51,318 nt of DNA, taken from positions 1 to 51,318 of the forward strand of contig CAKVCS010000001.1 in NCBI GenBank assembly GCA_934725785.1, given 5' to 3'. Both the position numbers and the translations under genes were made by a program. The DNA is from an uncultured Bacteroidales bacterium. Lineage in GTDB: Bacteria > Bacteroidota > Bacteroidia > Bacteroidales > Marinilabiliaceae. This document shows, in pieces, positions 11,184 through 49,989 of this stretch (within the stretch, counting starts at the first letter, position 1; every line of letters begins with the position of its first letter). Under the pieces are notes generated by a model. It did not search any database. It was given only the letters and a program-made list of their open reading frames with translations, and was not told where the DNA came from.

Positions 11184-11185
11184 GG

Positions 11186-14902: not shown

Positions 14903-14917
14903 GTGTCCTCTGTCGTT

Positions 14918-17821: not shown

Positions 17822-17846
17822 AGGGTTTATGTTTTTTCCTTTCTCT

Positions 17847-18770
17847 TTATGACAGTTGTATCTTGTTCTTCGTCGTGTTGTCCGTCGCCGTCAGTGGTGC
17901 GTCACTGTACTGCGTCTTGCTCGCCGAGAGCGTGAACCCTCCCCCGGCCACCCTTATTTCCTTGCGGCCGCGCCGTCCGGGCTTCATCCGCAGGGTGCTG
18001 GTGAACGCCGGAGACGTCACGCAGAGTGTCCTCCCCGTGAAGAAAGCGGAGGCCAGGCTCTGCTTGGCAGCCCTGCTCGTCAAGACGACCTCGGCGAAGC
18101 CGCCCATCCTGACAGTCTTGGGCCCATATATGATGCGCCCCGCCTGGTCGGTCACGACCACGCTCTTGCGGGCCGTCGGGCCGAACGTCCGCCTGTGGAG
18201 CGCCAGGCGAGCAAGGAAGATGACGGCGGCCATGGCGCACAGGGTTATTAGCTGCCCCTTGGCAAGGGGGTTCATGTCCTTGTCGAAGTATATTGTCCAT
18301 TGCATCAGCTTCGCGCCCTCGCTCGCCTCCATGCCGTTGACGCAGGCCATGCCGTGCGGCCGCATGACGAGGTAGCCCTGGTGCTTGCCCCCCTCGGCCT
18401 TGGGCAGGAAGCGGAAGCCCACCCCGACCTCGCGCGTCCTCCCCCCGTCCGCCGCCGATATGCTTATCACGTTGCCGCTGGCGCGACGGCCGTCAATGGT
18501 CACCTCGAGCACGTCTTCCGGGACGGGCGCGCCATCATTGTCTGTCACCACGAGGTCCACCGCCGCTCCGTCATTCACCGCGTCGTCGTTGAAGGTCAAG
18601 GCCATCCTCTTCACGAGGCTTGTGGTGTCGGCGTCCGACCACAGGAAGCCGTCGTGCCAGCTCGTCGTGCCGAGCGTCACTCGCTCCATGCCGTCGTCTT
18701 CCGAACACGAGGCCGCTGTCGAGGCCGTGATGGCCGCGACGGCCATCACGCGCAGAATCTTGGTGCTCAT
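17847..18770 (-). CDS. lipoprotein-like bitopic membrane protein
   Basis: Lipobox-like signal AITASTAASC|SEDD, an internal TM segment LITLCAMAAVIFLARLAL, and a basic C-terminal tail. In the same operon. Confidence 0.55.
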   Translation of the reverse strand: MSTKILRVMAVAAITASTAASCSEDDGMERVTLGTTSWHDGFLWSDADTTSLVKRMALTFNDDAVNDGAAVDLVVTDNDGAPVPEDVLEVTIDGRRASGNVISISAADGGRTREVGVGFRFLPKAEGGKHQGYLVMRPHGMACVNGMEASEGAKLMQWTIYFDKDMNPLAKGQLITLCAMAAVIFLARLALHRRTFGPTARKSVVVTDQAGRIIYGPKTVRMGGFAEVVLTSRAAKQSLASAFFTGRTLCVTSPAFTSTLRMKPGRRGRKEIRVAGGGFTLSASKTQYSDAPLTATDNTTKNKIQLS

Positions 18771-18802
18771 CTTGCTCTGTGTGGGTGTTTTTTCGTGGGG
18801 TG

Positions 18803-19789
18803 TCAGTCTTTGAACGAGATGTTCACGGTGGGGTAGTGCTTGTTTATGCAGCGGATCTCAATTGCCTTGCTCAGCAGGAACGTGAAGCGCGGCAGCCCCT
18901 GAGCCTCGGCCTCTATCGTCCACAGGTGATCTTCGGGAGGGTCCGCTGTGAGCTTCCGGGCGTACAGGCGGATGGCTTTGCCGCCGTCTTCCGTGGTCAC
19001 CGTCTCCTGGCGTGCTATGGCATACAGCTCGTCGTCCGACTTGAGCGTTATCTTCGCCCCGCCCGGGTCGCCGTCTATGGCTATGTCCACGTGATCCCCG
19101 TCTCTCACGGCGTAGACCGTCGAGTGCCTCAGCTTCACGTGGTTGATGTTCACGTCGGCCGTCTCCACCGTCCACAGCTGGGCGTCTTGCCTCTCCACCT
19201 CGCGCTCTATGTCCTTGGCGGCGGCGGCCCCGGTCAGCATCACGTAGAATCCGTAGCTCGTGGGGCTGGTGCTGCGCTCCCACCTGCCTATGGCGTCGAA
19301 TAGTCTGCCGCGGGTCTGCGAGAAGTTGGCCCCGTCGGTCATCAGGTAGAAGTATGTGTCGCCTTTGCGCTTGCCATAGTTGCTATAGAAGTCGTCGAAG
19401 GGGACGTATATCTCGGTGTGGCAGTCGTCCTCGAGCTTCAGGCCGTCCACGAATTTGCAGATGGCCTCTTTGCCCTCGGCTGTCGCCCTTTCCTTTTTGC
19501 GTGTCAGCTTGTGCCCGCTGTCGGTCCACGCCACCACCTCGAGCGTGGCCGTCTCGTCGTTCACGTTGCGAATGGCGCGTTTCAGGTTGCCCGTCACTTC
19601 GCCCCATATCGGCTTCATGGATCCCGTCACGTCCAGGTAATACGCCCTTGCCTCCACGCCTTGAGCGCAGGCCGCCCCAGGGAAGGAGGCCGCTGCCAGC
19701 GTCGCCGCGGCGCATGCGCCGAAGATTGCCGCCTGTCCGCGTCTTTTTGCGAGTGCGGCAAGGGCTCGCAGTGTGTGTTTCCGAGGCAT
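18803..19789 (-). CDS. secreted von Willebrand factor A (vWA) domain protein (TerY-like)
   Basis: The start is set at ATG 19787-19789 (MPRKHTL...). Signal-like AAIFGACAAATLAAASFPGAACA|QG, followed by a MIDAS-like YYLDVTGSM. Confidence 0.6.
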   Translation of the reverse strand: MPRKHTLRALAALAKRRGQAAIFGACAAATLAAASFPGAACAQGVEARAYYLDVTGSMKPIWGEVTGNLKRAIRNVNDETATLEVVAWTDSGHKLTRKKERATAEGKEAICKFVDGLKLEDDCHTEIYVPFDDFYSNYGKRKGDTYFYLMTDGANFSQTRGRLFDAIGRWERSTSPTSYGFYVMLTGAAAAKDIEREVERQDAQLWTVETADVNINHVKLRHSTVYAVRDGDHVDIAIDGDPGGAKITLKSDDELYAIARQETVTTEDGGKAIRLYARKLTADPPEDHLWTIEAEAQGLPRFTFLLSKAIEIRCINKHYPTVNISFKD

Positions 19790-19810
19790 GGAGATTCTGG
19801 TTTTGTGTTC

Positions 19811-19850
19811 TTCACAAATTTCAATAAAAAAAAACACTATCCAAATTTTA
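19811..19850 (-). promoter_or_regulatory. Bacteroides-type promoter for the six-gene operon (TTTG - GTG T9 spacer - GAAATTTG)
   Basis: The minus strand reads AAAATTTGGATAGTGTTTTTTTTTATTGAAATTTGTGAA. The -7-like box (19815-19822) lies 26 nt before the ATG. Confidence 0.45.
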
Positions 19851-26786: not shown

Positions 26787-26991
26787 ATGCGTGGCGTCTT
26801 TTTGTGGTGGGGAGGGAGGCGTAGCGCCCCGTCACGCAAATATAGCGTCTTTTCCGCCCGAATGGAATGCCGCGGCAGCCGTTTGCCGCGTCTTCTTCGG
26901 CGGCGCGCCCGTTTTTCCCCCGCGGCGGCGTCGGGGCGGGGTGATCCGCCGCGGGGTGACCTGCGGGCGCGATGCAGCCGCCTGTGAAAGA

Positions 26992-27022
26992 TTTTGATAG
27001 TGTTTTTTTTTGTATACTTTCG
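26992..27022 (+). promoter_or_regulatory. Bacteroides-type promoter for the island operon (TTTG - GTG T9 spacer - TACTTTCG)
   Basis: TTTTGATAGTGTTTTTTTTTGTATACTTTCG, with TTTG at 26993-26996 and a -7-like box at 27015-22 (one mismatch to TAnnTTTG). Confidence 0.4.
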
Positions 27023-27102
27023 TGAAATATAATTTAACGCCACAGGGTGTCGCCAGGTGGCTACGTGTGAGAGGAAAATAAAGGAAGAAGATAATTAGTG
27101 CC

Positions 27103-27960
27103 ATGGAGGCAAACAGCGGTATAAAATGCACATTCTCTGGTCATGAAACTTTTACCTGTAAGTCAATATGGCTGAAGAAAGGCTATGACTTTGTAAAGGA
27201 TGGTCACTCTTTTAGCGATGAGGAGGCTGTGGTTGTTTTGGGAGTGGGCAAGAATATGGTGAGTTCCATAAGGTATTGGCTCCGCGCTTTTGGGCTCATA
27301 AATCAAAGCGGCGAGTTATTGCCTCTGGCCGACTTCATTTTTGACACCGAAACAGGGCGTGACCCGTTTGTGGAAGATGTGCAGACCCTGTGGCTGTTGC
27401 ATTGGAACTTGATATACAGCAACTACGCCAGTCTCTACAGATATGTTTTCCTAAACTTTCACAAAGAGCGCAAGATGTTCAATAAAGAGAACATCTTCAA
27501 ATTTTTGAGACGCAAGAATGACGAAAAGCCATTCGGCGGGGGCGTTTGGAACGATAATACTATAAGCAAGGACATAGCGATGCTTCTCCGTATGTACGTT
27601 TCTCCAAACGGCAGCCAGAACGATGACTATTGCGCTACGTTGATCGATCTGAATTTGATTAGGAGGGTTGGCAAGGACTCTTATGAGTTCAATTATCCCG
27701 CAAAAGCAAAAATCAGCCCGTTGACATTTCTCTATGCTGTCAACAAAATTTCAAACGGCAGCCAAGTAGTCGAATTTGACAAGCTTTTGGAGCTTGCTCT
27801 TATATTTTGTTTGTCGCAGGGCGAGCTGTATGACATATTCAGCCGGCTTACGGAAATCAATCCAAACATTTCATTTGTCAACTCCGCAGGGGAGCAGTTG
27901 TTCGCCGTCAAACAGGATTTCAACGGGTTTGACATTCTCGACATGTATTATAAATCGTGA
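27103..27960 (+). CDS. DUF4007-like protein (SspB-like candidate)
   Basis: N-terminal FSGHETFTCKSIWLKKGYDFV matches my recollection of the DUF4007 N-terminal motif (GHETF...WLxKGY). 285 aa. First gene of the island. Confidence 0.55.
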   Translation: MEANSGIKCTFSGHETFTCKSIWLKKGYDFVKDGHSFSDEEAVVVLGVGKNMVSSIRYWLRAFGLINQSGELLPLADFIFDTETGRDPFVEDVQTLWLLHWNLIYSNYASLYRYVFLNFHKERKMFNKENIFKFLRRKNDEKPFGGGVWNDNTISKDIAMLLRMYVSPNGSQNDDYCATLIDLNLIRRVGKDSYEFNYPAKAKISPLTFLYAVNKISNGSQVVEFDKLLELALIFCLSQGELYDIFSRLTEINPNISFVNSAGEQLFAVKQDFNGFDILDMYYKS

Positions 27961-30900
27961 TGACGATGAAGTTCTCAACATCTGTAAACATTGAGCGAGA
28001 CTGCGGCAAGGGGTTTGATTACGTTGTTACAGCCAATGCGAAACAGGCAATTGGCAAAATTGTTAATCAGTTCTCTGTTGGAATCCATTCTTTCTGTTTG
28101 ATTGGCTCCTACGGAACGGGCAAGTCGAGTTTCCTGCTGGCTTTAGAGCAATGTATGCTATGCTCTCGGCCTTTACCGAGCCAACTTATGACCAACAAAG
28201 GGCAGTTCAATGGATTTACCAAGTTCCGATTCATTAACATAGTTGGCGATTATACTCCGCTGGGAGGATTGCTTGATGCGCACTTACGGCATGAAAAGTT
28301 TCAAGGAGGCAATTTTTTCGAGACGCTTGACGGCCTTTACGCCGAATGCCAAAAAGACGACACATTCCTTGTTTTCGTAGTTGACGAATTCGGCAAGGTG
28401 CTTGAATACGCCGCCAAAAATAATCCGGAAAAGGAAATGTACTTTTTGCAGAAATTCTGCGAATATGTCAATGACACAGATAAGAATATCCTTTTCCTTG
28501 CTACTCTCCACCAAGCTTTTAGCGCATACGCTAAAGATTTAAGGCTTGAGCAAAAGCAGGAGTGGGCGAAAGTAAAAGGCCGCATCGCCGACATCGTTTT
28601 TAAGGAGCCTGTCGAGCAGTTGCTAAATCTCGCTGCGACTAAAATCTCGCGGGAGAGGGGGGGGGCGCGGAGTGTGGCCTGTAGACAGCTTTATGAGTTG
28701 GCACTCACGTCCAGGTTCATCAATGATAGCCTCAAGTCTGATGTCGCGCTGGCTCTGTACCCTATGGATATTTTTGCCGCATACGCTCTAACGGAGGCCA
28801 ATCAGCGTTACGGGCAGAATGAGAGAAGTCTGTTTACTTTCTTAGAATCGAGGGGCGAAGGCTCTATCTCTGACTTTTCACCATCTGGCAATACCCTTTT
28901 CAGCCTCGTCAATGTTTATGACTATGTACGTTACAATTTTTATTCATCATTGACCGAGGTAAATGCCGATTCTTCCAAGTGGTCGGCAATTCTTACTGCA
29001 ATTGAGCGTATAGAGGGGCTTCCCCTTGCGGAGGAGGAGGTAAAAACGGCTGTCTCAATTGTCAAGGTTATCGGGATGCTCAACATTTTTGCTTCTTCGG
29101 CGACAAAAATTGATTCCGATTTCCTTGCGTCATATGCCCGGCTTTCGTTGGGAATTAAGGACGTTCTGCCTTTGCTGGGCAAGTTGCAAAGGGCGCAGAT
29201 TGTCCGTTTTGCGAAATATAAATCGAAATATATACTGTTTGAGGGTACTGATGTCGACATTGAGTTTGGGCTTTATATTGCTTCGCTCGAGTGTAAACGT
29301 TCCGATGACTATGTCGACAAACTGAGGCGGTTTTTCCCTCACCACATTCGCCTCGCGAATGCCCATTTATACCGGACCGGAACGCCCCGATATTTCGAGT
29401 ACCAGATATCGGGCGAACCCGTCAACAAGTCGCCTCATGGTGAGACTGACGGCATTGTCAACCTTATCTTTACAAGGGAGGACGAGTTGCCAGCAATCAA
29501 AGCCAGATGCCTTTCAGTCAAAGGTATGGCTGTCGTTTATTGCATTTTTCGAAATGCGCCGGAGGTGACTGACCATGTTTACAACATAGAGAAATTGCAT
29601 TGGGTAAGGGATTATTTCGTCAAGGATGAAAACGACAAGGTGGCGAATAATGAGATAGAAAGCCTTGTTGAATACGAAGAGTCACTGCTGAGCAAGTCAA
29701 TATTCGACAGTCTCTATTCTGACAAGGTCATGTGGGTTTTCAACGGTGAACCCGTTGACGGAATACATTCCCACAAGGACTTGATGAAGTTCATTTCCTT
29801 AGTTTCCGACCGGGTTTACTATTCAACGCCTGTTTTCAGAAATGAGTTGATAAACAGACAACGCCCGAGCGGGACAATGTCGGTTGCACGGCAGAATTAC
29901 CTGAACGCTTTGCTGGAAAACTCCGATAAGCCTGACATCGGATTTGACAAGGGCAAATTTCCGCCGGAAAAGTCAATATATCTCACAATGTTGAGAAGCA
30001 CAGGGATTCACGTCCCTGCGGGCGACTCGTTCACTTTTTGCGAACCATCAGAGCCGTCTTTCAAGGAGCTGTGGAAATGTTGCATGGAGTTTATCAAGTC
30101 AGCCCGGCAGAAGCGGAGAAAAATCAGTGAGCTTGTCACTTTGCTTTCACAAGCTCCGTTCGGAATGAAGAAAGGTTTTATCGATTGGTGGGTTCCGTCT
30201 TTTCTCATAATTAAGAAAAATGATTTTGCGCTCTATAGTGGAGATGCTTATGTGCCGTTCATAAATAAAGATGTTCTTGGTCTGCTCTATCGCAACCCTA
30301 ATGACATATCTGTGAAGTCTTTCAGTGTAGAGGGCGTGAAGCAGGTGTTTTTTCAAAAATATAGGGAGGCTGTGAATCTGGGGAAGTCTGAATTGAACTC
30401 TAATTCATTCGTAGAGACAATTCGTCCTATCTTAACATTCTACAGGCACTTGAACCCTTATGCCCAAAACACAAGAGATATTCCTACCGAGGCCAGGAAA
30501 TTTCGTGACGTCATTTCGCGAGCAACGGATCCCGAGGTGACATTCTTCGATCAGCTGCCCGAAGCCTTGGGTTTCCGACAGGATGTCATGGTGCGCAACC
30601 CGGAGTCGGTTGATAGTTTTGTCTCTGTTTTGCAAAATGCGATCAGGAGTCTGAGGGGCTGTTACGATGATTTTGTTCGCTCGATTGAACGCCATATCCT
30701 CAATGCGCTCAAGGTCAATGAGAATGAGTTTCCCGCATACAAGCCCATTGTCGATGGTCGGTATAAGTCTGTCAAGGCGGAATTGATGCCCAACGATGTA
30801 AGGACTTTCCACTTGCGACTGACCGGAAGCTATGACAATTATAAAGAGTGGGTCGAGTCGATATCCTATGCGGTTCTCAACAAGCCCCTTGAGAAAATCA

Positions 30901-31178
30901 AGGATGCGGAGAAGACGTTCTTGCTCACTTCGTTGACAGACAAACTTTTCCAGCTCGATGATTATGTAGAGATGCACAAAACTGACAACGAGTCTATTGT
31001 CCGTCTGCATATTACTCAAAATAGAGGAGCGGCAATAGCGAAACAAGTGGTTATCCCGAGCCATAACATCAAAGAGGTTGACCGGTTGGAGAAACGGATT
31101 GAAGATGTGCTCTCATCCGACAACGCCATCAATATGGCAGCTCTTATCAATATGATAAAAAGAAAGTGTAATGGATAA
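27957..31178 (+). CDS. large P-loop NTPase, 1073 aa (SspC-like candidate)
   Basis: Walker A GSYGTGKSS (28104-28130) and Walker B-like FLVFVVDEFGK. The start is GTG 27957 or ATG 27960, overlapping the upstream stop. Confidence 0.6.
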   Translation: MMTMKFSTSVNIERDCGKGFDYVVTANAKQAIGKIVNQFSVGIHSFCLIGSYGTGKSSFLLALEQCMLCSRPLPSQLMTNKGQFNGFTKFRFINIVGDYTPLGGLLDAHLRHEKFQGGNFFETLDGLYAECQKDDTFLVFVVDEFGKVLEYAAKNNPEKEMYFLQKFCEYVNDTDKNILFLATLHQAFSAYAKDLRLEQKQEWAKVKGRIADIVFKEPVEQLLNLAATKISRERGGARSVACRQLYELALTSRFINDSLKSDVALALYPMDIFAAYALTEANQRYGQNERSLFTFLESRGEGSISDFSPSGNTLFSLVNVYDYVRYNFYSSLTEVNADSSKWSAILTAIERIEGLPLAEEEVKTAVSIVKVIGMLNIFASSATKIDSDFLASYARLSLGIKDVLPLLGKLQRAQIVRFAKYKSKYILFEGTDVDIEFGLYIASLECKRSDDYVDKLRRFFPHHIRLANAHLYRTGTPRYFEYQISGEPVNKSPHGETDGIVNLIFTREDELPAIKARCLSVKGMAVVYCIFRNAPEVTDHVYNIEKLHWVRDYFVKDENDKVANNEIESLVEYEESLLSKSIFDSLYSDKVMWVFNGEPVDGIHSHKDLMKFISLVSDRVYYSTPVFRNELINRQRPSGTMSVARQNYLNALLENSDKPDIGFDKGKFPPEKSIYLTMLRSTGIHVPAGDSFTFCEPSEPSFKELWKCCMEFIKSARQKRRKISELVTLLSQAPFGMKKGFIDWWVPSFLIIKKNDFALYSGDAYVPFINKDVLGLLYRNPNDISVKSFSVEGVKQVFFQKYREAVNLGKSELNSNSFVETIRPILTFYRHLNPYAQNTRDIPTEARKFRDVISRATDPEVTFFDQLPEALGFRQDVMVRNPESVDSFVSVLQNAIRSLRGCYDDFVRSIERHILNALKVNENEFPAYKPIVDGRYKSVKAELMPNDVRTFHLRLTGSYDNYKEWVESISYAVLNKPLEKIKDAEKTFLLTSLTDKLFQLDDYVEMHKTDNESIVRLHITQNRGAAIAKQVVIPSHNIKEVDRLEKRIEDVLSSDNAINMAALINMIKRKCNG

Positions 31179-32277
31179 GGTAAGGCATGTGCTGGGAATC
31201 TCCGGAGGCAAGGACAGTGCGGCGTTGGCAATATATTTGAAAGACAAATATCCGGCGCTCGGCATAGACTTCTACACTTGTGACACGAAATGCGAATTGG
31301 CGGAAACAGAGCAACTCGTTGAGAGATTGCGTTCTTATTTGGGTAGGATTACGACGCTCCAAGCTGCCAAGGGAAGTCCGGAACCTACGCCTTTCGACCA
31401 TTTCCTGAAGATTAATGGCGGTTTTCTGCCTTCTGTTCAGCAGAGGTGGTGCACACAGAAAATGAAACTTGCGGAGTTCGAAAAGTATGTAGGCGACGAT
31501 CCCGTGGTCTCCTATGTCGGCATACGTGGCGATGAGGACCGAGATGGCTATGTCTCCTCAAAACCTAATATTCAGTCAGTTTTCCCGTTCCGCAGGAACA
31601 TATGGAGCATCGATGTCATAAACAAGGTCTTGAGCAACGATAACATTAGCAAGTTCAGCGAATGCTATCGCTCCGTTGCCGATACCCGGACTTTTGATGA
31701 GGCCAACAAGGTCCTCACCGCCAAGCTTACAAAGGATTTCTTCTACTCTAAGAAGCTCAATGCGTTGCTCGATATTGACATAAGGGCCTTTAATCACGCC
31801 ACTTTCTGCTTCCTTAAGGAATATACCGATTACCCCGTCGGCAGGTTGGATAATTTCCCTCTGCTTGACAATGAGGATGTCCTCTGTAAAGAGGACATTT
31901 TCAGGATATTGGAGGATAGCGGGGTCGGCGTCCCCGCCTATTACAAACTCATAGATTTTGAGGTGGACGGCAAGACGGGGAAATATTGCCGTAGCCGCTC
32001 AGGATGCTATTTCTGCTTTTTTCAGCAGAAGATTGAGTGGGTTTGGCTCTACGAGCAGCATCCCGACCTGTTTAAGAAAGCGATGGAATATGAAAAAGGC
32101 GGCTACTCTTGGATTCAAGACGAACCTCTTGAAAAACTGATCAGGCCTGAGCGTATACGCCAAATTAAGCTTGACCACATCAAGAAGACCGCGGTTCTCG
32201 AGTCAAAGAACAGAAGCAAGTTACTCATCGACCTGTTCGATGACGACGATGTCAACTGCGCCAATTGCTTTATTTAG
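31171..32277 (+). CDS. PP-loop ATP pyrophosphatase of the PAPS-reductase/DndC/SspD family
   Basis: SGGKDS PP-loop at 31201-31218, QQRWCTQKMK, and the Cys cluster CRSRSGCYFC. There is an 8-nt overlap with the upstream gene. Confidence 0.75.
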   Translation: MDKVRHVLGISGGKDSAALAIYLKDKYPALGIDFYTCDTKCELAETEQLVERLRSYLGRITTLQAAKGSPEPTPFDHFLKINGGFLPSVQQRWCTQKMKLAEFEKYVGDDPVVSYVGIRGDEDRDGYVSSKPNIQSVFPFRRNIWSIDVINKVLSNDNISKFSECYRSVADTRTFDEANKVLTAKLTKDFFYSKKLNALLDIDIRAFNHATFCFLKEYTDYPVGRLDNFPLLDNEDVLCKEDIFRILEDSGVGVPAYYKLIDFEVDGKTGKYCRSRSGCYFCFFQQKIEWVWLYEQHPDLFKKAMEYEKGGYSWIQDEPLEKLIRPERIRQIKLDHIKKTAVLESKNRSKLLIDLFDDDDVNCANCFI

Positions 32278-34554
32278 ATGCTGAAGGGGGTAGAGTTTCC
32301 ATCTCATCGACGTTTTAAGTCGCGGACGGAGTGGGAGCCAATAGGTTTCTTCTCCGACTGCCTCTGTAATGCGACCCAGTTCAACCTGATGCTCGGTTTC
32401 TTTTCCTCATCCGCCATAAACGTACTCGCCGACGGCTTCGCTTTCTTCATCTCCAATGGGGGCCGTATGAATCTGGTTATAAACGACATCCTAACTCAGC
32501 AAGACAAAAATGCCATAGCCGTCGGTGAGTATGCCAAGCCCATCCCTTTTTTTGACATACACGACGTCGAAAGGTTGAAAGCGACGCTGTCCGTGCGGGA
32601 CTCGCATTTTTTCGATTGCATAGCGTGGCTCATACGCAATAATCGTATTGACATAAAGATTGTCGCGCCAAAGGGCGGGGTGGGGATTTCTCACACCAAG
32701 ATGGGTGTTTTCTGTGATGGTGCGAACAAAGTGGGTTTTGACGGATCTTGTAATTTCTCGCGGTCGGCATTGGTGGACAATATCGAGAGTCTCACGGTGT
32801 GCTGCGATTGGGACGGTAACACTGCATCCGCAACCATAGACAGGCTGAGCGATGAGTTCGATCTTGTCTTCTCAGGCAATGATGATAGTGTTGTTTTTGT
32901 GCCCACCGATAAGGTTAAGACCAGTGTCACCGAGTTGTTTAAGGACAAGACTATAGACGAATTGCTTGAAGACGAATACAAATTGATTAAGCACGACTGT
33001 GCAAAATCTGCGCTGCCAGACTCGGTGATAAAGGCTCTGGCAAAAGCCAAGATGAAGATAGAGACCGCGATAGAGATGGGCAAATCAAAGTACGAAGTAC
33101 AGAACGTCGAGTCGATAGGCCTTGTTAAGCCTTGTTTCCCCTATGCGTCCGGCCCTCGCGAATACCAAAAGCAGGCATTCCTGAATTGGAAGAACAATAA
33201 GCAGAAAGGCTTGTTCGCGATGGCGACTGGCACGGGTAAAACCATTACTTCACTAAATTGCCTTCTCGAGATATACAAGAGGTTAGGTTATTACAAAGCT
33301 ATCATTCTTGTACCGACAATAGCGCTTCTTGACCAATGGGAAGCCGAATGCCGTAAGTTTAATTTCCGGACGGTTATAAAAGTTTGCTCCAAGGCCAGTG
33401 ATTGGAAATCGCAGGTAGCGCATATACGTCTGCTCGAAATGACGAACCCCGACAACGATTTATCATACGTTGTTATATCAACATATGCGTCATACGTAAG
33501 GTCTAATGTCTTTAACGAGCTGAACCATTTTACAAAAAACAAGCTCCTGTTGATAGCCGATGAGTGTCATAATATGGGTGGCGGGTTGATGGCTCAGCGC
33601 ATGCAAGACATTAAATATGTGCGCCGCATAGGTCTCTCGGCAACGCCCGATAGGCAGTCTGATGATGTCGGCAACCGCAAGCTTATGGATTTCTTCGGAT
33701 GTGACGGCGGTTACACTTTCGAGTACTCTATGGCCGATGCCATACAGAACGGTGCTTTGTGCCGTTACTACTATTATCCGCACGTAGTTCGACTGACAGA
33801 GAGTGAGATGTCCGACTACGTCGAGCTTTCAAAGGCGATAGTCAAACTCCTTGGGATCAAAGATGACACAGGTCAGGACCGCCTTAAAATGCTAATGCTG
33901 AAACGTAAACGCATAATACATAAGGCGGCCAACAAGCTGCCCATTTTTCAGCAAATAATCGAGCAAAGAATCAAGGAGAAAGGGAATCTGAAATACGCTT
34001 TGGTCTACGTGCCCGAGGGAGACAGGCCTGACAATTACGAGGCTGAAATATCAGATTTGGATGATTCGGGTTGCTCTGATCACGATACAGAGCATCTCAT
34101 TGACGATTTCACTCGGATTGTGCGCGATATTGATTCTCATATTACAGTCCGTAAGTTCACGTCTGTTTCTTCCGACAGAGACGCAATGCTGAAGGATTTC
34201 GCCTCCGGCGCAATCGATGTACTTGTATCAATGAAGTGTTTAGACGAGGGTGTTGACGTCCCGCGAAGTGAGTTGGCCATATTTTGCGCAAGTACGGGAA
34301 ACCCGCGGCAGTTCATACAGCGTCGCGGCCGTGTGCTAAGAACTCATAAAGATAAGCGCTTCGCCGTCATTCACGACCTCGTCGTTGTGCCCGACAATGT
34401 TTTCAATCATGATTGCTATGCTTATGAGAAAAATTTGGTTCAAGCCGAGTTGAGCCGAGTGCGTGATTTTGCGTTGCTCTCAGAGAACATTACCGATACG
34501 GTCAATGAATTGTCCGATGTGTTGCGGCGTTACAATTTGTCCATATTTGAATAG
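32278..34554 (+). CDS. PLD-family (HKD) nuclease domain fused to an SF2 DEAD/DEAH-type helicase
   Basis: HKD-like SHTKMGVFCDG...GSCNFSRSAL (HTK at 32692-32700). Helicase motif I is MATGTGKT (33220-33243), motif II is DECH (33559-33570), motif III is SATP, and motif VI is QRRGRVLR. Confidence 0.8.
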   Translation: MLKGVEFPSHRRFKSRTEWEPIGFFSDCLCNATQFNLMLGFFSSSAINVLADGFAFFISNGGRMNLVINDILTQQDKNAIAVGEYAKPIPFFDIHDVERLKATLSVRDSHFFDCIAWLIRNNRIDIKIVAPKGGVGISHTKMGVFCDGANKVGFDGSCNFSRSALVDNIESLTVCCDWDGNTASATIDRLSDEFDLVFSGNDDSVVFVPTDKVKTSVTELFKDKTIDELLEDEYKLIKHDCAKSALPDSVIKALAKAKMKIETAIEMGKSKYEVQNVESIGLVKPCFPYASGPREYQKQAFLNWKNNKQKGLFAMATGTGKTITSLNCLLEIYKRLGYYKAIILVPTIALLDQWEAECRKFNFRTVIKVCSKASDWKSQVAHIRLLEMTNPDNDLSYVVISTYASYVRSNVFNELNHFTKNKLLLIADECHNMGGGLMAQRMQDIKYVRRIGLSATPDRQSDDVGNRKLMDFFGCDGGYTFEYSMADAIQNGALCRYYYYPHVVRLTESEMSDYVELSKAIVKLLGIKDDTGQDRLKMLMLKRKRIIHKAANKLPIFQQIIEQRIKEKGNLKYALVYVPEGDRPDNYEAEISDLDDSGCSDHDTEHLIDDFTRIVRDIDSHITVRKFTSVSSDRDAMLKDFASGAIDVLVSMKCLDEGVDVPRSELAIFCASTGNPRQFIQRRGRVLRTHKDKRFAVIHDLVVVPDNVFNHDCYAYEKNLVQAELSRVRDFALLSENITDTVNELSDVLRRYNLSIFE

Positions 34555-34560
34555 TGCTAT

Positions 34561-34794
34561 ATGAGTGTGTATCAAACCAAAGATGATAGAATGTTGCAAG
34601 CCGTCATATCAGACGAGCGACTTGTCAACTACTATGGCTACAATCCTAATGACTTCACGTCTATGTCTGACGCCTTAAATTCCGATGTGGTTATAGTTCA
34701 GGCTATTGCCAAAATCATCGATAAATCTGGTCAAGGGTGCAGCGTCACGGAAATTTATAATGAGGTAAGAGATTTGCTAACGGCGAAGATATGA
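34561..34794 (+). CDS. 77-aa hypothetical protein
   Basis: Shares the island's AT-rich composition. Its stop overlaps the next start (ATGA at 34791-34794), which suggests translational coupling. I recognised no motif. Confidence 0.5.
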   Translation: MSVYQTKDDRMLQAVISDERLVNYYGYNPNDFTSMSDALNSDVVIVQAIAKIIDKSGQGCSVTEIYNEVRDLLTAKI

Positions 34795-36965
34795 TTTTAA
34801 AAGAGCTGAAAATAAAAAACTTCCGAAGCTACTATGGCTATAATACCCTTTTATTTTCCAAGGGGCTGACGCTTGTTATTGGCGACAATGGAGATGGGAA
34901 AACAACGTTGTTCGAGGCTTTGGAGTGGTTGTTCAATACAACTGGTGCCCCCCAAAAAGAATCAAACATCTCCGAAATGCGAAAGTCTGAGTTGGAAATT
35001 GGGGAAAGTGATGAGGTATCTGTCTCCTTAAGCTTTGAGCATGACGGACATAAAGAAGTTGAAAAGTCTTTTACTTTCGAGAGGGAGTTAGGCGGCAATA
35101 TTAGCCTTAGGGACTATAAGTTCGTCGGATATTGTATTGATGGCGTTGAACGTTCTCGTACCGAGGGTGCCAAGCTTTTGGACAGATGTTTTGAGCCTGT
35201 AATCCGCACATACTGTTTGTTCAAGGGAGAGAATAAGCTCAACGTTTTTGAAACCCCTGACGCCCTTAAGACATTGGTTGAGACATTCTCAGGTATAAAA
35301 GACTTTGATAAAAAGGTTGACCTTACAAAAAGTTTTGAGGAGAAAGCTGCCAATGTGGTCAGCAAAGCTCTGCAAAACGACAATAAAGTGTCGAAGCAGA
35401 CGAAAGAGCTTACCGATAGAAGAACAGCTCTTTTAAACGAGATACAAGAAATTAAAATTGAGTTAAAAGAAAAGAGAAAGTCAATCGACTGGTATTCTTC
35501 CAAATTGCAGGAATTGGAAAGTAATCAGGACCTCTCAGAGCGCTATCAGCACTTGAAGGTTCGCATAAAAGGATTAGAAGATAAACGTGCTGGTTTAGCC
35601 AAACATGTGAAATGCGACTACAATGCAAAATTATTGGACGAATCATGGATCCTGCGTTCCTTTCCATCTGTCATGAGCGACTTCTCTGCAAAAGTCTCTG
35701 CGTTGAGCAAGGCGAAGAGGAGACTTGATAAGCAAGAGACAGAAAGGCGTGCTATGGCCGATGGCAAGCGTGAGGCTTACACGCAAATTCAGAAACTTGT
35801 AAATGATACAGTCCCACTGCCTTGGAACTTGCCAGACGAACAAACGATGAAGGAGATGATTGACGATGAGGTTTGTAAGGTTTGCGGACGGCCTGCGCCT
35901 AAAGGCTCTGAACCATATGAGTTTATGCGCCATAAACTGCAGGACTATCTTGACCACGTAAAGGCAGAGGCGAATAAGAAATCAAATGATTCTCAAGAGG
36001 AAGAGAAACCTCTGTTCGTCAATTCATTCATTGATGAGTTGCATTCTTTACAAATCAAATTTAGTGGAGACGAGGAGATTGCGGTCGCAAACACAGCAAG
36101 GAAAATTAGTGAGGAGTTAGAGTTCATAAACGCAAGAAAACTTCAGTATAATGAAGTCGATACGCAGCTGAACGATTTGGAAACAGAGGCAAACAACATG
36201 ATATTGCAGTCAGGATTAAGTGATGAACTGTTGTCGAAGAATTTTTCGGATTTAATAGGTTTTTTTGACTCTAAGAGTCATGCGGAAAGGCGCATGACGG
36301 AGTTGGAGGCAGAACTTAAGTCCAAGGAGGAGGAAGTCGAGCGAGTTAAGGAAGCATTGTCACAACTTGAGCCAGAAAGTACTATGACCCAGGTATTGCA
36401 ACGTGTTCATCAAGCTTTTGAAAATATTAGCAAGGCCTTCGAAAATGCCAAAACTCAGAACATTAACAAGTTCCTGCAGATGCTCGAGTCCAAATCAAAT
36501 GAGTATCTTCAAAAATTGAATGAAGGAGACTTCTATGGGGTAATCCATATCTGGAAGTCTATGGGAGACTCTGCGCATATAGAGCTTTGCAGTAAAAATG
36601 GAACACGCATTGAGAACCCCAATGGTGCGCTTAAGACGACAATGTACATGTCTGTCCTCTTCGCGATTTCTGAAATTACAACATTGAAAAGGGAGAAGGA
36701 CTATCCTCTAATCTTTGATGCGCCTACCTCTTCTTTCGGCAGTTTTAATAAGGAGCGTTTCTACAATGTCATCGACTCTATCGACAAGCAGTGCGTTATA
36801 TTCACAAAGGACTTGCTCAATGTAGATAAAGAGACAGGACTGAAAGAGGTTGACTGCCAGACAATCGATAAACTCTCTTGCCCCGTCCTGCGCATCGAGA
36901 AGGTTCTGCCGTTCAACGATAAGGATTTGTCTACTGTTCGAACTGTCATAAAGATAATAAGGTAA
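34791..36965 (+). CDS. SMC/Rad50/DndD-like ABC ATPase with a central CxxC hook
   Basis: N-terminal LKIKNFRSY...VIGDNGDGKTT (Walker A at 34881-34907), long coiled-coil arms, CKVCGRP at residues 362-368 of 724 (35874-35894), and a C-terminal Walker B YPLIFDAPTSSF. Confidence 0.75.
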   Translation: MILKELKIKNFRSYYGYNTLLFSKGLTLVIGDNGDGKTTLFEALEWLFNTTGAPQKESNISEMRKSELEIGESDEVSVSLSFEHDGHKEVEKSFTFERELGGNISLRDYKFVGYCIDGVERSRTEGAKLLDRCFEPVIRTYCLFKGENKLNVFETPDALKTLVETFSGIKDFDKKVDLTKSFEEKAANVVSKALQNDNKVSKQTKELTDRRTALLNEIQEIKIELKEKRKSIDWYSSKLQELESNQDLSERYQHLKVRIKGLEDKRAGLAKHVKCDYNAKLLDESWILRSFPSVMSDFSAKVSALSKAKRRLDKQETERRAMADGKREAYTQIQKLVNDTVPLPWNLPDEQTMKEMIDDEVCKVCGRPAPKGSEPYEFMRHKLQDYLDHVKAEANKKSNDSQEEEKPLFVNSFIDELHSLQIKFSGDEEIAVANTARKISEELEFINARKLQYNEVDTQLNDLETEANNMILQSGLSDELLSKNFSDLIGFFDSKSHAERRMTELEAELKSKEEEVERVKEALSQLEPESTMTQVLQRVHQAFENISKAFENAKTQNINKFLQMLESKSNEYLQKLNEGDFYGVIHIWKSMGDSAHIELCSKNGTRIENPNGALKTTMYMSVLFAISEITTLKREKDYPLIFDAPTSSFGSFNKERFYNVIDSIDKQCVIFTKDLLNVDKETGLKEVDCQTIDKLSCPVLRIEKVLPFNDKDLSTVRTVIKIIR

Positions 36966-36970
36966 CCAAT

Positions 36971-37489
36971 ATGTCCGATAGTTTATTCGATTTGTGGGCC
37001 AGGAGAGACCCGCAGTGGGAGAAAAGGTATGAGGATAACATAGTCAAGAAATTCTGCGACTATGGCCGAGGGGCCACCTCTTTGCGCGAGGATAGGGGTA
37101 AGCTCTTTGGCTCTGGATATGAAATATACATTGTTGCATTTTTCATTGGCTTGTATAACAACCAGAGGCGACAGCTTGTCGATGATGCAAAAAAGCGTAA
37201 GAGTTTTGGACACCCAATTCAAAATTGGGGGAATATAACTGCTTCAGTTGCGAATGGCAGGAAACCTTACCCCAAACTGCGTAAGTTTATTTTCATAGCT
37301 CTCATAGCTCGTGCCGACATTGATTTCATCGCACTTGAAGAAGGCGATATTAAGCCAGCCAAGGCTGTCGATATGTTAGTACAGCTGATGGAGGAATACG
37401 CCAATTGGGGCTTCCATTTTATTGAGGATAAGATGGAGGACGACGCAAATTATTTTTTCGTGAAACTGCTTTCCTCGAAGTCTTTTTAG
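36971..37489 (+). CDS. 172-aa hypothetical protein (last island gene)
   Basis: Island-like composition, 5 nt after the preceding stop. Notable segments are GYEIYIVAFFIGLY and MEEYANWGFHF. I could not assign a family with confidence. Confidence 0.5.
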   Translation: MSDSLFDLWARRDPQWEKRYEDNIVKKFCDYGRGATSLREDRGKLFGSGYEIYIVAFFIGLYNNQRRQLVDDAKKRKSFGHPIQNWGNITASVANGRKPYPKLRKFIFIALIARADIDFIALEEGDIKPAKAVDMLVQLMEEYANWGFHFIEDKMEDDANYFFVKLLSSKSF

Positions 37490-37606
37490 GTTTTGACGCA
37501 CCAGACGGCAAAAGAACGGATGACGGTGAGCCCGAATCGTTAGACTGAGAGGATGATTAAGCTGCTCATCTCGTTACATATAATCTCGTAGCATTCTAAA
37601 AACCAC

Positions 37607-37644
37607 GAAGCCGGGCGGCGAGGACACTCTCGCCGCCCGGCTTC
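37607..37644 (-). terminator. rho-independent terminator of tRNA-Leu (possibly bidirectional, also closing the island operon)
   Basis: Perfect 16-bp stem GAAGCCGGGCGGCGAG / CTCGCCGCCCGGCTTC with a 6-nt loop. The minus strand continues GTGGTTTTTAG. Confidence 0.75.
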
Positions 37645-37655
37645 TTCAGTTCCCG

Positions 37656-37737
37656 TACCCTGACCCGGGATCGAACCGGGACGGATCGCTCCATTGGTGT
37701 TTGAGACCAACGCGTCTACCAATTCCGCCATCAGGGC
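37656..37737 (-). tRNA. tRNA-Leu (anticodon CAA)
   Basis: The reverse complement folds by hand: acceptor GCCCTGA/TCAGGGT, D-arm GCG-GAATTGGTAGA-CGC, anticodon stem TTGGT/ACCAA with loop CTCAAAC, long variable arm TGGAGCGATCCGT, T-arm CCCGG-TTCGATC-CCGGG, discriminator A. No encoded CCA. Confidence 0.9.
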
Positions 37738-42503: not shown

Positions 42504-43241
42504 CTACATGCACGGCACGCCTGGCGTGGCGATGGCGACAGCCGTGGGGAACAGGGGGAATACGTGGAGCGCATAGCCAAGCACGACAATCGCGAAGCCC
42601 GCGCAAACTATCGTGGCGTACCATACGGCGACGGTCTTCCACCTCGAAAGCCAAATCTCGTTGTTCCATCCGAGTGTCTGCAGCATGCTCCAGAACCCGT
42701 GGGTCAGGTGCAACCATATGGCCACAATCCAGACAACGTAGGCGAGGGCTACCGGCCACTGGCTGAAGTAGTATGCGATGAAGCGGGCGCCCTCGGTGGG
42801 CTTTATTATGCCCATCTCGCCTCCGTCAAACTCGCAGCCGCGCAGCTCGGCGAGCATCATGTGGCTCCAGAACTGGTGCAGGTGCAGGGCTATGCCGAGC
42901 AGGACGATGATGCCAAGGACAAGCATGTTCTGGCTCGACCACTCAACGCCTTTCGGCGCGTCGACAACGGCGTAGCGGTCGTTACCGCGGGCGCGGCGGT
43001 TCTGCACGGTCAGGATGAACGCGTAGACTATGTGCACCAGGAAACCGATGGCGAGCACGGCCGTGCCGGCCAAGGCGTACCAGTTCGTGCCGAGGAACTC
43101 GCACACCGCGTCATATGCGCCGTCCGAGAACGCGGCCACAAGGTTCATGCTCATGTGGAAAAGAAGGAAGAGCACGAGCAATATGCCCGATACGCTCATT
43201 ATCAACTTCTTCCCAATGGACGATTGGAAAATACAGCTCAT
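42504..43241 (-). CDS. frdC: fumarate reductase/succinate dehydrogenase cytochrome b subunit (Bacteroides type)
   Basis: SSIGKKLIMSVSGILLVLFLLFHMSMNL. Five-TM pattern. First gene of the C-A-B order. Confidence 0.85.
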   Translation of the reverse strand: MSCIFQSSIGKKLIMSVSGILLVLFLLFHMSMNLVAAFSDGAYDAVCEFLGTNWYALAGTAVLAIGFLVHIVYAFILTVQNRRARGNDRYAVVDAPKGVEWSSQNMLVLGIIVLLGIALHLHQFWSHMMLAELRGCEFDGGEMGIIKPTEGARFIAYYFSQWPVALAYVVWIVAIWLHLTHGFWSMLQTLGWNNEIWLSRWKTVAVWYATIVCAGFAIVVLGYALHVFPLFPTAVAIATPGVPCM

Positions 43242-43955
43242 AAATGAATGTTTGTAATTATGTGAATTTTATAGGTTTGCTGAGTGCTTGTTTGCCGAAA
43301 GGAGGCTTCGCGCGGTTCTGTCCGCGCTTTCCCTTCACAAAAATAAGATAAGGCGTCGAATGCCGACCCCCAATTAAAGAAAAATTTCTTTATTTAAAGT
43401 CGGTCAAATTTAGCCCTCCCTCCAGGCTCCTGCTTCACGCCCTCCGTCCTGCGCCCCGCCCCCCCCCTGCTCCCGGACCAATCCCCGCCCCGCGCTTGCC
43501 GAGCCTCCTGTTCCCTCTTTTGCCGCCCCCCCCTGTCCGTCGCGGCCATCTCATGCCAGCCTCCCCCTCCTTAGTCTTTGGTTGCGTTCACCGCGTCCGT
43601 GGCTGGATGCCGCGCCGGAATCACATAAGCCATTGTCAGCTAATTTATTTTGCGATTTCAACAAAAATATTTTTCAAAACATCGCCAAAATAATTTGTCA
43701 TTTCAATTTATCAACCTACCTTTGCATTGTCAACGGAACAAGATGACGACCTCGGGTCAAAGTCTTTCGCACTCCCATAACTGACTGACGGATACAGCTG
43801 GCCGCCTCTCTTACGCGGTGCGATGTAGGCTCTTCTCCCTCGATGCCCGTTTTGCTCTTTTGGCAAACCAATTCAATAATTCGAACAAAACATCAAATCA
43901 GCGCGGGGCGGTCTGTTTCCTCCGCCCAAAAGCGCTCTCAAACACATCAAATGAA

Positions 43956-44561
43956 ATGGCAGTTTATAAGCAAGGTGTTCTCGGTCCGTTCAGTGGTAAA
44001 GTCGGAACTGTTGTTGGAAGTTCTTGGCGCGGTATTGCATATATCCGCTCGCTGGCTACGAAGGTTGGAAATCCGCGTACGGCGGGGCAGGTCGCCGCAA
44101 GGTCTCGGCTCGCTCTCGTGGCGGGAAGGCTCAAGCACTTCGCTACCGCAATCAGGGCCGGATTCGTCAACGCCGGGGCTCTGAGCCCTTGGTCGGCGGC
44201 CATCAAGGCCAACCTCGCCCATGTCAAGGATTCAGGCTCGGGCCTCACGGTCGATATGAAGTCGCTCCGCCTCTCCGACGGTTCGGGCGAGTTCGCCGTC
44301 ACGCCGGCTAAGACCTCTGGCAGCGTGGATTTCTCATGGAAGGCCCCCAAGGCGTCCGACGCCTTCTACGGGGGTAAGCTCTATGCGGCGGCCTATAATG
44401 TCGCCAATGGCAAGGCCGCTAACTTCGTGGCCGACCTCACGGCCTCTTCCGCGTCCATGAGCCTCGCGTCCCTCCTCTCGGGCGAGGACGATGATGTCCA
44501 TGTCTACTACTTCGTTGCAACCGCCGCGGCAAGCACGCCTACCGCGCATGTCGCCGACTGA
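43956..44561 (+). CDS. DUF6266-like hypothetical protein
   Basis: MAVYKQGVLGPFSGKVGTVVGSSWRGIAYIRSL matches my recollection of the DUF6266 N-terminus. The start is set at ATG 43956. Confidence 0.5.
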   Translation: MAVYKQGVLGPFSGKVGTVVGSSWRGIAYIRSLATKVGNPRTAGQVAARSRLALVAGRLKHFATAIRAGFVNAGALSPWSAAIKANLAHVKDSGSGLTVDMKSLRLSDGSGEFAVTPAKTSGSVDFSWKAPKASDAFYGGKLYAAAYNVANGKAANFVADLTASSASMSLASLLSGEDDDVHVYYFVATAAASTPTAHVAD

Positions 44562-44678: not shown

Positions 44679-45239
44679 ATGCTTTCTTTCAAGCTTTACC
44701 GCAAGGAGAACACGGCCGACTTCTGCCGCGGCCGCCTCTACGCTTCTGTCAACGACGATTGCCCGCCCTCCGGCGGCTCGTCCGCGCCGCTCGGCGAGTG
44801 CCTTCTCTGCGACACCATCGAGCCGCCTGTGCGCCGCCCTGCGGACTTTGTCCGAGGCAAGACGGCCGTACCCGCCGGCACCTACGACCTCGCCCTCACC
44901 CGCAGCCCGAAGTTCGGGCGCCCGCTCCCCGTTCTCATCGATGTGCCGGGCATGACGGGTGTCCGCATACACCGCGGCAATTCTGTGGCCGACACCCGCG
45001 GCTGCATCCTCCCGGGGCGATACGTCGGCCGGGGCAGGGTGGTGGACAGCACTCCCCGCGAACTTGACATCGTTCGCATGATGATGGATAGCGCCGATGG
45101 CGCAGAGATTGAGATTGTCGACGATTTCGCCGCGCCCTCTGTCGAGGCCGACCGCTCGCCAATCTTCTCCTCGTGGCCGCTCGCAACCCTCGTGGCGCGT
45201 TCCGTCTGGGATCGCCTCCGGCTCTCAGCCGCGGCATGA
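44679..45239 (+). CDS. DUF5675-like protein with a YkuD-like H...GC motif
   Basis: KTAVPAGTYDLALTRSPKFGRPLPVLIDVPGMTGVRIHRGNSVADTRGCILPG. Confidence 0.55.
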   Translation: MLSFKLYRKENTADFCRGRLYASVNDDCPPSGGSSAPLGECLLCDTIEPPVRRPADFVRGKTAVPAGTYDLALTRSPKFGRPLPVLIDVPGMTGVRIHRGNSVADTRGCILPGRYVGRGRVVDSTPRELDIVRMMMDSADGAEIEIVDDFAAPSVEADRSPIFSSWPLATLVARSVWDRLRLSAAA

Positions 45240-45283
45240 CCGGCTCGCCCCGACCCTCGCCAACCGGACGGCCACAAAAGCTG

Positions 45284-45316
45284 CCAGGCCCCGCCACCTC
45301 ATGTGGCGGGGCCTGG
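45284..45316. terminator. bidirectional hairpin between convergent genes
   Basis: Perfect 14-bp stem CCAGGCCCCGCCAC / GTGGCGGGGCCTGG with a 5-nt loop. No clear U-tract. Confidence 0.5.
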
Positions 45317-45411
45317 CCCTGCGGCGGGCGGCTTTGCCTGTCGCCACCGCTCCCTTTATGCTTTTGTCGCGTGTTCCTGTGCGGGCGCGACTCTCCGCGA
45401 GCTGCCGCTCT

Positions 45412-46989: not shown

Positions 46990-47282
46990 TCTTATTTCTG
47001 TTTTCGGTTCCTCGGCGCGTCTTGCGCACCACCCCTCCTTCTACGTGCATCTTTTATTTTGGTTGTGAAAAGCCATGAGGCTCCGTTGATACTTTTACCA
47101 ATTGGCGTGTTTTCTAAGTTGCCCCTTCCTGCTCATCCCAAAGCCTGTCATAAGTCTCCAGCCTTTTCAAGTTTGCTCCATTTTCATGCCTCATGACACA
47201 TAGCCTCTCCATTGCCCGCCTCACACATTTTTGTATGCCGACATTCCAATCTGTGCTGTCTTAATCCAGCCTAAATGTTGCT

Positions 47283-47305
47283 GGGTGTTTTTTTTTGTAA
47301 ATTTG
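47283..47305 (+). promoter_or_regulatory. Bacteroides-type promoter for the J-like/GrpE-like/Hsp70 operon
   Basis: GGGTGTTTTTTTTTGTAAATTTG, with an exact TAnnTTTG at 47298-47305 about 46 nt before the ATG. Confidence 0.5.
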
Positions 47306-47350
47306 TGTTGACGACAGCAAGAAGATATCGCAAGTTCAAACAGGGTCTTG

Positions 47351-49986: not shown

Positions 49987-49989
49987 TCA

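Follow-up and report, generated by a model that had tools for sequence, protein, structure and literature searches.

A horizontally acquired seven-gene operon in a Bacteroidales genome pairs predicted SspBCD phosphorothioation genes with a divergent PbeABCD-like gene set

Which system do seven genes form that lie together in an AT-rich block beside a tRNA-Leu gene, and how did they come to be present in a high-GC genome? This question was raised by a 10.6-kb island (positions ~26,990–37,606) in contig CAKVCS010000001.1, analyzed here as one stretch of 51,318 nt (the window, whose numbering is used for all positions). The DNA comes from an uncultured member of the Bacteroidales with a high GC content, not shown to be of the genus Bacteroides. 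An earlier note on this DNA had described the genes as a probable defence locus matching no system that could be named. We compared the seven predicted proteins with PADLOC, Pfam and NCBIfam models and with sequences from related genomes and metagenomes (L-numbered loci). The island is probably a single operon that encodes a two-module defence cassette resembling a restriction-modification system and based on DNA phosphorothioate (PT), in which a predicted SspBCD modification module is followed by a divergent PbeABCD-like restriction module.

Gene content and operon layout

Five of the seven proteins showed confident family matches in PADLOC (SspB, 2e-82; SspC, E=0; SspD, 2e-85; PbeA, E=0; PbeC, 1e-21), and the other two, encoded by genes 5 and 7, were found in the positions of PbeB and PbeD (Table 1). 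The claim of the earlier note that the combination matches no nameable system did not hold. The opposite view, that the whole set is an already named system, was largely borne out, except that the genes represent two modules and not one system. All recognizable domains act on DNA or nucleotides, as the note had stated, and its proposal of a defence locus was supported.

The seven open reading frames (ORFs) are all located on the plus strand. Adjacent ORFs are joined by GTGATG (27957–27962), an 8-nt overlap (31171–31178), TAGATG (32275–32280) and ATGA (34791–34794), and the two other gaps are 6 and 5 nt. This confirms the co-directional arrangement with overlaps or gaps of at most 6 nt that was described previously, and the layout fits a single, tightly packed operon, as expected for the one transcription unit that had been proposed.

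Table 1. Features of the island, its borders and related cassettes (window positions, except where an L-numbered locus is given)
Feature	Position	Strand	Basis or remark
SspB, 285 aa, DUF4007 DNA-binding component	27103–27960	+	PADLOC, 2.1e-82
SspC, 1073 aa, BrxC-like P-loop ATPase	27957–31178	+	PADLOC, E=0
SspD, 368 aa, PP-loop PAPS-reductase-like sulfur-transfer enzyme	31171–32277	+	PADLOC, 2.1e-85
PbeA-like protein, 758 aa, HKD (phospholipase D-family) nuclease fused to SF2 helicase	32278–34554	+	PADLOC, E=0
PbeB-position small protein, 77 aa	34561–34794	+	Position and size only
PbeC-like ATP-binding cassette (ABC) ATPase, 724 aa, long insert, midpoint CxxC	34791–36965	+	PADLOC, 1.1e-21
PbeD-like protein, 172 aa as read	36971–37489	+	Weak homology to canonical PbeD
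Frameshift site and out-of-frame remnant of PbeD C-terminus	37453–37546	+	Alignment to relatives
AT-rich leader, presumed operon promoter region	26990–27102	+	5′ of sspB
tRNA-Leu(CAA), flanking host gene	37655–37737	−	ARAGORN; 3′ end toward island
Host GC-rich hairpin outside the island, putative tRNA-Leu terminator and right boundary of the island	37607–37644	−	
Further examples of junction cargo	L138:8161–9993; L096:5763–9992; L090:7905–9996		SspD–PbeA junction

The matches of SspB to the PADLOC model and to Pfam DUF4007 (1.3e-73) both covered the full length. SspC was matched with 1121 bits over residues 14–1049 (model positions 2–1038 of 1039) and showed an additional PADLOC match to BrxC (6e-73); its start codon is either GTG at 27957 or ATG at 27960. 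The Walker A (GxxGxGKS, G50–S57) and Walker B (DEFGK, 143–147) motifs of SspC were conserved in 96–98% of 55 sequences, and SGGKDS (residues 11–16), C94, C279 and C282 of SspD were invariant across 57 sequences. By homology, genes 1–3 are thus assigned to SspB, SspC and SspD, which would make up a module for single-strand PT modification. Neither a match to SspE (DUF262-DUF1524) nor an FtsK-like protein of the SspH type was found by PADLOC among the seven island proteins.

As first described (PMC6459918) and later re-annotated (PMC10853773), PbeABCD systems consist of an HKD nuclease–SF2 helicase, a small, fast-evolving protein of 66 aa, an ABC ATPase whose coiled coil bears a cysteine hook at its apex, and a DndE-like protein of 152 aa. 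Genes 4–7 agree with this set in order and in size. The PbeA-like protein encoded by gene 4 was matched over its full length by the PADLOC PbeA model (1053 bits). It also matched NCBIfam TIGR04095, 'DNA phosphorothioation system restriction enzyme' (1.5e-116, below the curated cut-off), and Pfam ResIII, DEAD and Helicase_C, together with a weak match to PLDc_2. Residues H139, K141, D147 and N159, GTGKT (318–322), DExH (428–431) and QxxGRxxR (681–688) were invariant in 67 sequences; helicase motifs I, II, III and VI are among the invariant positions. The 77-aa product of gene 5 showed no family match in PADLOC, Pfam or NCBIfam; 47 related cassettes contain an ORF of 69–81 aa between PbeA and PbeC with 30–58% identity to the window copy.

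The PbeC-like protein matched Pfam AAA_23 and SMC_N. Conserved in this family are the Walker A motif (G31–T39), C362 and C365 (100% of 58 sequences) and PLIFDAPTSSF (638–649), so that Walker A (31–39) and DAPTSSF (643–649) are separated by ~600 residues. The long insert with its CxxC is read as an arm predicted to form a coiled coil and to bear a zinc hook. With a profile built from this family, canonical PbeC proteins scored 53–66 bits and DndD 36 bits.

Gene 7 has 535 homologues, nearly all of 185–195 aa, and showed no match in Pfam, NCBIfam or PADLOC; a search of its profile against PDB sequences gave noise only. By hhalign there was no match to one DndE, and one canonical PbeD gave a local match only, with 5% probability. 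The link to canonical PbeD emerged solely when the profile was broadened to 51 full-length representatives chosen at 50% identity. This profile aligned collinearly with three canonical PbeD proteins, annotated as 'DNA phosphorothioation-associated protein 4' (per-sequence E-values of 7e-7, 4e-6 and 1e-3), through an FA..LG helix and an EEYANxG motif, which points to weak homology; no match of the gene 7 profile to DndE itself was found. An AlphaFold2 model of a full-length relative (predicted local distance difference test score, pLDDT, 78) had DndE (4lrv) as its best PDB match in Foldseek, which was not significant (E=1.8, probability 0.2, template modelling score 0.44), and a fold resembling that of DndE is suggested by this model. 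The PbeD proteins of this clade have ~190 aa, and their conserved tail, EPE(S)L(D), is acidic. In NCBI records, several of the homologues (P0128, P0174, P0191, P0200, and P0221) are labelled 'glycoside hydrolase family 15', which seems to be an annotation error, passed on between records, for a small protein of DNA defence.

On the basis of these comparisons, genes 4–7 are classified as a divergent PbeABCD-like restriction module. Two other assignments were considered and rejected. SspFGH did not fit genes 4–7, as SspH resembles FtsK and a Walker A motif is all that SspF contains, and DndD/DndE did not fit genes 6 and 7, as no TIGR model for DndD or DndE was matched and the PbeC profile scored DndD below PbeC.

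Recurrence and modular structure of the cassette

At E<1e-20, over 6,000 protein clusters were homologous to the PbeA-like protein, and the best 120 of them were 72–76% identical. The named sources were metagenome-assembled genomes (MAGs) of Bacteroidales, Paludibacteraceae and Salinivirgaceae, and some of the related contigs came from human-gut and animal-gut metagenomes; the cassette appears to be widespread. Three MAG or metagenome contexts contained a DUF4007 protein, a ~1075-aa ATPase and a ~368-aa protein, sometimes followed by additional genes, and then PbeA, a 77-aa protein, an ATPase and a 190-aa protein. A metagenome scan yielded 80 loci with PbeA relatives of 50–76% identity, which were searched by tblastn with the seven window proteins. 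SspB, SspC and SspD were found upstream and on the same strand in 55 of the 56 loci that had enough upstream DNA, with PbeB-, PbeC- and PbeD-like genes downstream. In 37 loci the layout was as compact as in the window, the modules lying within ~115 nt and mostly within ~17 nt of each other (TAGATG in the window). The only exception, L116, contained no SspD and only the start of SspC, and apart from this locus the PbeA clade was not found without SspBCD among the loci examined. Because SspBCD was present upstream in 55/56 loci, the seven-gene set is a recurrent cassette, frequent in Bacteroidales metagenomes, and not a chance neighbourhood.

Pairwise identities among 56 cassettes were strongly correlated within the Ssp genes (r 0.96–0.97; 0.97 for SspB with SspC) and within PbeA, PbeC and PbeD (0.84–0.94), compared to ~0.5 across the SspD–PbeA junction. 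SspC types were found paired with several PbeC types and vice versa. These patterns indicate that writer and restriction genes are freely recombined where SspD and PbeA meet. SspB (median identity 45%), SspC and PbeC (median pairwise identity 42%) were hypervariable, with medians of 42–45%, and SspD varied least of all cassette genes (median 70%).

The same junction was found to contain 1–4 kb of extra defence-type genes in 18 of 55 relatives. This cargo included a true SspE (1.5e-291; L093:7682–9994), a DndB-family protein accompanied by a partner of 190 aa, a set of three genes headed by one for a HATPase_c_3 protein, and a GmrSD_N protein with a protein kinase. The presence of SspE beside Pbe-like genes mirrors the additive SspE+SspFGH double systems (PMC8092258). 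Two loci contained a DUF1016/YhcG nuclease between SspC and SspD.

Relation to known systems and possible function

The PT restriction branches known from the searchable literature are DndFGH/SspFGH, SspE and PbeABCD, and Pbe is tied there to Dnd or to methyltransferases, experimentally only to Dnd and in archaea. No explicit Ssp–Pbe pairing was encountered in those primary papers and reviews that could be searched. Every domain of the island is already catalogued, and it does not represent a new kind of system; the Ssp–Pbe pairing and the clade with CxxC and a long PbeD appear to be undescribed. The cassette shares with the SspABCD-SspE/SspFGH systems of Vibrio and E. coli (PMC8092258, PMC9646914) the SspB-SspC-SspD order as a three-gene unit and the lack of a desulfurase at the locus, which is seen in many Ssp clusters. 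It differs from them in that SspE and SspFGH are absent, the neighbouring restriction genes are Pbe-like, and its SspB and SspC fall into a clade from Bacteroidales. Compared to haloarchaeal DndCDEA-PbeABCD (PMC6459918) and the CxC ABC ATPase-DndE systems (PMC10853773), the four-gene order is the same: PbeA, small protein, ATPase and PbeD are arranged as in the canonical Pbe set adjoining dndCDEA on a Pontibrevibacter plasmid. The island set is, however, linked to sspBCD and not to dndCDEA or methyltransferases, and the window PbeA is only ~30% identical to plasmid-borne and archaeal PbeA, copies of which sit with dndCDEA, with methyltransferases or alone. Further differences from the canonical set are a CxxC in place of CxC, a PbeD of ~190 aa with an EPESLD tail in the clade of the island (canonical, 142–152 aa) and the dissimilar 77-aa protein in the PbeB position.

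BREX type 4 (brxPCZL) of gut Bacteroidota also writes PT with a homologous DUF4007 protein, BrxC-like ATPase and PAPS reductase (PMC12914056, PMC12839542), and besides the match of SspC to BrxC, SspB and SspD matched BrxP weakly. In contrast to BREX type 4, the island contains neither PglZ nor BrxL, DUF4007 and PAPS reductase are separate proteins, and the effector side is entirely different. A helicase-translocase motor combined with a nuclease, and discrimination presumed to depend on a mark in host DNA, are shared with Type I/III ATP-dependent restriction enzymes and with DISARM DrmC-type phospholipase D nucleases. Here, however, the nuclease is of the HKD type and fused N-terminally, the mark would be placed on the backbone (PT) and not on a base, and ABC ATPase and putative DndE-like partners are added.

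In the proposed mechanism, SspBCD would write single-strand PT on host DNA with the help of a housekeeping cysteine desulfurase whose gene lies elsewhere. Every Ssp system tested so far, including those of gut isolates, produces CpsC, chiefly in CCA (PMC12914056), and CpsC in CCA motifs would be the mark to expect here. The ABC ATPase and PbeD, its putative DndE-like partner, would survey DNA, and the HKD nuclease–SF2 helicase would translocate on and damage DNA without the mark; the 77-aa protein is probably a regulator or adaptor. The PT chemistry and its motif, the dependence of restriction on the mark and an anti-phage activity are all inferred. For DndCDEA-PbeABCD, PT-dependent protection of a haloarchaeon has been reported, with pbeB, pbeC and pbeD each absolutely required (PMC6459918).

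Several findings weigh against a PT-based cassette of two cooperating modules. The 77-aa protein had no detectable similarity to four canonical PbeB proteins, and the PADLOC match of the PbeC-like protein was confined to the N-terminal head. At the midpoint of the latter, canonical PbeC proteins have CIC (4/4), whereas the window protein (C362-K-V-C365) and 57/57 relatives have CxxC, a different motif in the same place and probably with the same role. No Aminotran_5-type protein that might represent the SspA cysteine desulfurase was found among the window genes scanned, nor was such a desulfurase found in three related contexts. Since IscS can substitute for SspA (PMC8092258), the missing SspA does not exclude that the island belongs to the Ssp systems. 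Pbe-type modules also occur alone or with methyltransferases (PMC10853773) and thus do not depend on PT. Free reassortment at the SspD–PbeA junction would be seen between independent neighbours as well, and the pbeD gene of the window was found to contain a deletion (see below).

The main rival is that the island consists of two independent neighbours, with SspBCD as an orphan PT writer that has an epigenetic or redox role, or a partner elsewhere, and the Pbe-like set as a stand-alone system blind to PT. The reassortment of the modules fits this, as does the occurrence of canonical Pbe modules alone or with methyltransferases; Pbe has also been doubted as a dedicated restriction partner of PT modification (PMC10853773), and the unrelated cargo located exactly between SspD and PbeA in 18/55 relatives is what would be seen in a defence island. 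Independence is nevertheless considered unlikely, given the co-occurrence in 55/56 loci, with strand and gene order conserved over a range of 50–76% PbeA identity, the short distance between the modules in 37 loci (within ~115 nt, mostly ~17 nt) and the failure to find the PbeA clade without SspBCD except in L116. It is even less probable that the Pbe-like module acts by abortive infection, PbeB restraining the HKD nuclease until a phage trigger frees it to cut host DNA, so that PT marks would be irrelevant to the distinction of self from non-self. This is the alternative model of PMC10853773 for CxC-DndE systems, and PbeB (30–58% identity to the window copy) and PbeC (median 42%) are the fastest-evolving components of the restriction module, which is what contact with phage proteins would lead one to expect. 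However, PT modification allowed a virus to escape from the Pbe system of the archaeon (PMC6459918), which speaks for discrimination based on the mark, and the tight linkage to a modification module is hard to explain by pure suicide.

A different question is whether the PT-based two-module cassette still works in this lineage. Alignment to relatives showed a 1-nt deletion in pbeD at or just past the T6 run at 37453–37458. Past the deletion, the next frame reads FFRETAFLEVFLGFDAPDGKRTDDGEPESLD* with its stop at 37546, which agrees with the conserved tail of all relatives, and nucleotide homology to the nearest cassettes extends to 37544. The window copy thereby loses ~28 residues, including an AFLxxFL helix and the EPE(S)L(D) tail, which are conserved in 22/22 aligned relatives; all 53 unique related PbeD copies from the loci had at least 185 aa, compared to 172 aa in the window. 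Independent assemblies were 99.97–100% identical to the window without gaps, which makes a sequencing error unlikely. Since the archaeal system no longer protected its host when pbeD was deleted (PMC6459918), restriction in this lineage may be weakened or lost, while modification looks intact from its genes. On these grounds it is conceivable, though we consider it doubtful, that the cassette no longer works as a defence and that what is left is either an orphan module for PT modification or an island in decay. Against such a loss of function, the first 163 residues of PbeD are intact and contain all invariant columns of the family; the lost tail is predicted to be disordered (pLDDT <50 for residues 175–191 in the AlphaFold2 model of a relative) and may be dispensable; and the remaining six genes are full length with intact motifs.

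Clusters of sspBCD without a known partner make up 83.9%, and other restriction counterparts have been proposed for them (PMC8092258); the cassette described here is a candidate for this missing restriction partner. More specifically, we tentatively suggest, with somewhat less than even confidence, that the Ssp-linked Pbe-like set is a third, undescribed restriction partner of Ssp phosphorothioation, which would read PT independently of sequence. The free recombination between SspD and PbeA suggests that PT, or its absence, is read without a recognition subunit matched to the writer. If this is true, part of the ~84% of sspBCD clusters without SspE or SspFGH would be explained, and the cassette would combine a sequence-independent reader of a backbone mark, with a zinc-hook ABC ATPase as its core, and a variable slot for extra effectors between the modules. 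With its writer, optional cargo slot and restriction module, the cassette would offer a clean test of restriction that uses a sparse backbone mark.

Foreign origin, borders and neighbouring genes

The GC content over positions 27,000–37,600 was 0.45, compared to 0.60 on the left side and 0.575 on the right. All ten 1-kb windows inside the island had a GC content of at most 0.475, whereas those outside had a minimum of 0.513 (mean 0.591, sd 0.041). The tetranucleotide correlation with the host profile was −0.07 to 0.08 inside the island and mostly 0.90–0.97 in 5-kb segments of the host (0.83 for 45,001–50,000), and the GC content at third codon positions (GC3) was 0.46–0.60 in island genes vs. 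0.81–0.93 in flanking genes. In 40-nt windows the GC steps were located at ~26,980–26,990 on the left and at 37,600–37,607 on the right. The abrupt change reported in the earlier note was thus true to within a few bases, and sliding GC and tetranucleotide comparisons showed the island to be clearly unlike the host. The block is foreign, horizontally acquired DNA by GC, GC3 and tetranucleotide composition. Related cassettes have a GC content of ~0.40, near that of their own flanks (0.42); the cassette is at home in low-GC contigs and foreign to a host with 60% GC. Since the closest sampled cassette showed just 72% DNA identity, no recent donor is among those sampled.

The foreign DNA comprises the bare operon and two spacers of ~110 and ~60 nt. 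At the left border the GC content drops from 0.78–0.85 to 0.23–0.28 at ~26,980–27,000, where the AT-rich leader begins. An exact Bacteroidetes −7 box (TAnnTTTG) upstream of sspB was not found in the leader, which holds a box with one mismatch (TACTTTCG at 27015) and TTTG motifs farther upstream. Nucleotide homology to the nearest cassettes starts only at 27101–27103. The promoter function of the leader is presumed.

At the right border, the earlier note had placed the island against the 3′ end of tRNA-Leu(CAA). The adjacency was confirmed, but an intact putative terminator lies between the two. The hairpin at 37644–37607 has a perfect 16-bp stem and a 6-nt loop followed by the T-run GTGGTTTTTA (minus strand), and it is read as the terminator of the tRNA-Leu gene itself. 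As the AT-rich DNA begins past this terminator, the island is not inserted in the tRNA gene. The hairpin also faces the end of the operon and could terminate both converging transcripts. A tRNA gene was found anywhere in the flanks of only 9 of 56 related cassettes. With the terminator intact and so few relatives near a tRNA, the position beside the tRNA is a weak signature of a defence island, contrary to what had been argued; since the terminator separates the tRNA from the island, the adjacency looks incidental.

In agreement with the earlier note, which had seen no integrase, no transposase and no convincing duplicate of the tRNA 3′ end, no integrase, recombinase or transposase was found in the island or within 10 kb, and no flanking direct or inverted repeats of note and no copy of the tRNA end were found. 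A PD-(D/E)XK 'transposase' family protein (PDDEXK_2, 5e-70) is encoded on the minus strand at 10216–11223, 16 kb from the island, and was the sole mobile-element-like gene seen in the window. That the island is the remnant of an integrase-mobilized, tRNA-targeting genomic island, such as an integrative and conjugative element or a prophage-like element, would agree with its location at tRNA-Leu(CAA) and its clearly foreign composition. This origin is highly improbable, because recombination genes, direct repeats and a tRNA-end copy are all missing, the tRNA is complete with its terminator intact before the island, the foreign DNA is just a bare operon with spacers of ~110 and ~60 nt, and adjacency to a tRNA is no trait of the family (9/56). 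Arrival by recombination into a variable spot is our guess.

An empty site was sought in related genomes. A contig scan with the left-flank dCache protein returned nothing. The same scan with FrdA identified as closest GTDB representative a Bacteroidales MAG from cattle rectum (93% amino acid and 83% nucleotide identity). In this relative, tRNA-Leu(CAA), to which the window tRNA-Leu is 93% identical, lies upstream of frdC next to an unrelated protein, so the locus is rearranged and the empty site cannot be read. The relative has a 2-kb low-GC patch (0.42–0.46) of its own directly downstream of frdB (L005:6000–8000). Exact look-ups of four flank and island proteins returned near-identical contigs only, all carrying the island, and no empty site. 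The host species is rare, and all conspecific contigs found carry the island.

Two other regions of the window deviate in composition. A minus-strand cluster at 12545–19837 encodes a 967-aa Tubulin_2 (PF13809) protein beside proteins of 785, 307 and 344 aa with no assigned family; none of the four showed a PADLOC match, and the GC content is somewhat low (0.51–0.57) between positions 15 and 18 kb. In the stretches 43000–44000 and 46000–51318, which contain genes with DUF6266, DUF5675 and LRR_5 domains, the GC content falls to 0.51–0.54 and the tetranucleotide correlation to 0.83–0.90, and these stretches may be older acquired DNA.

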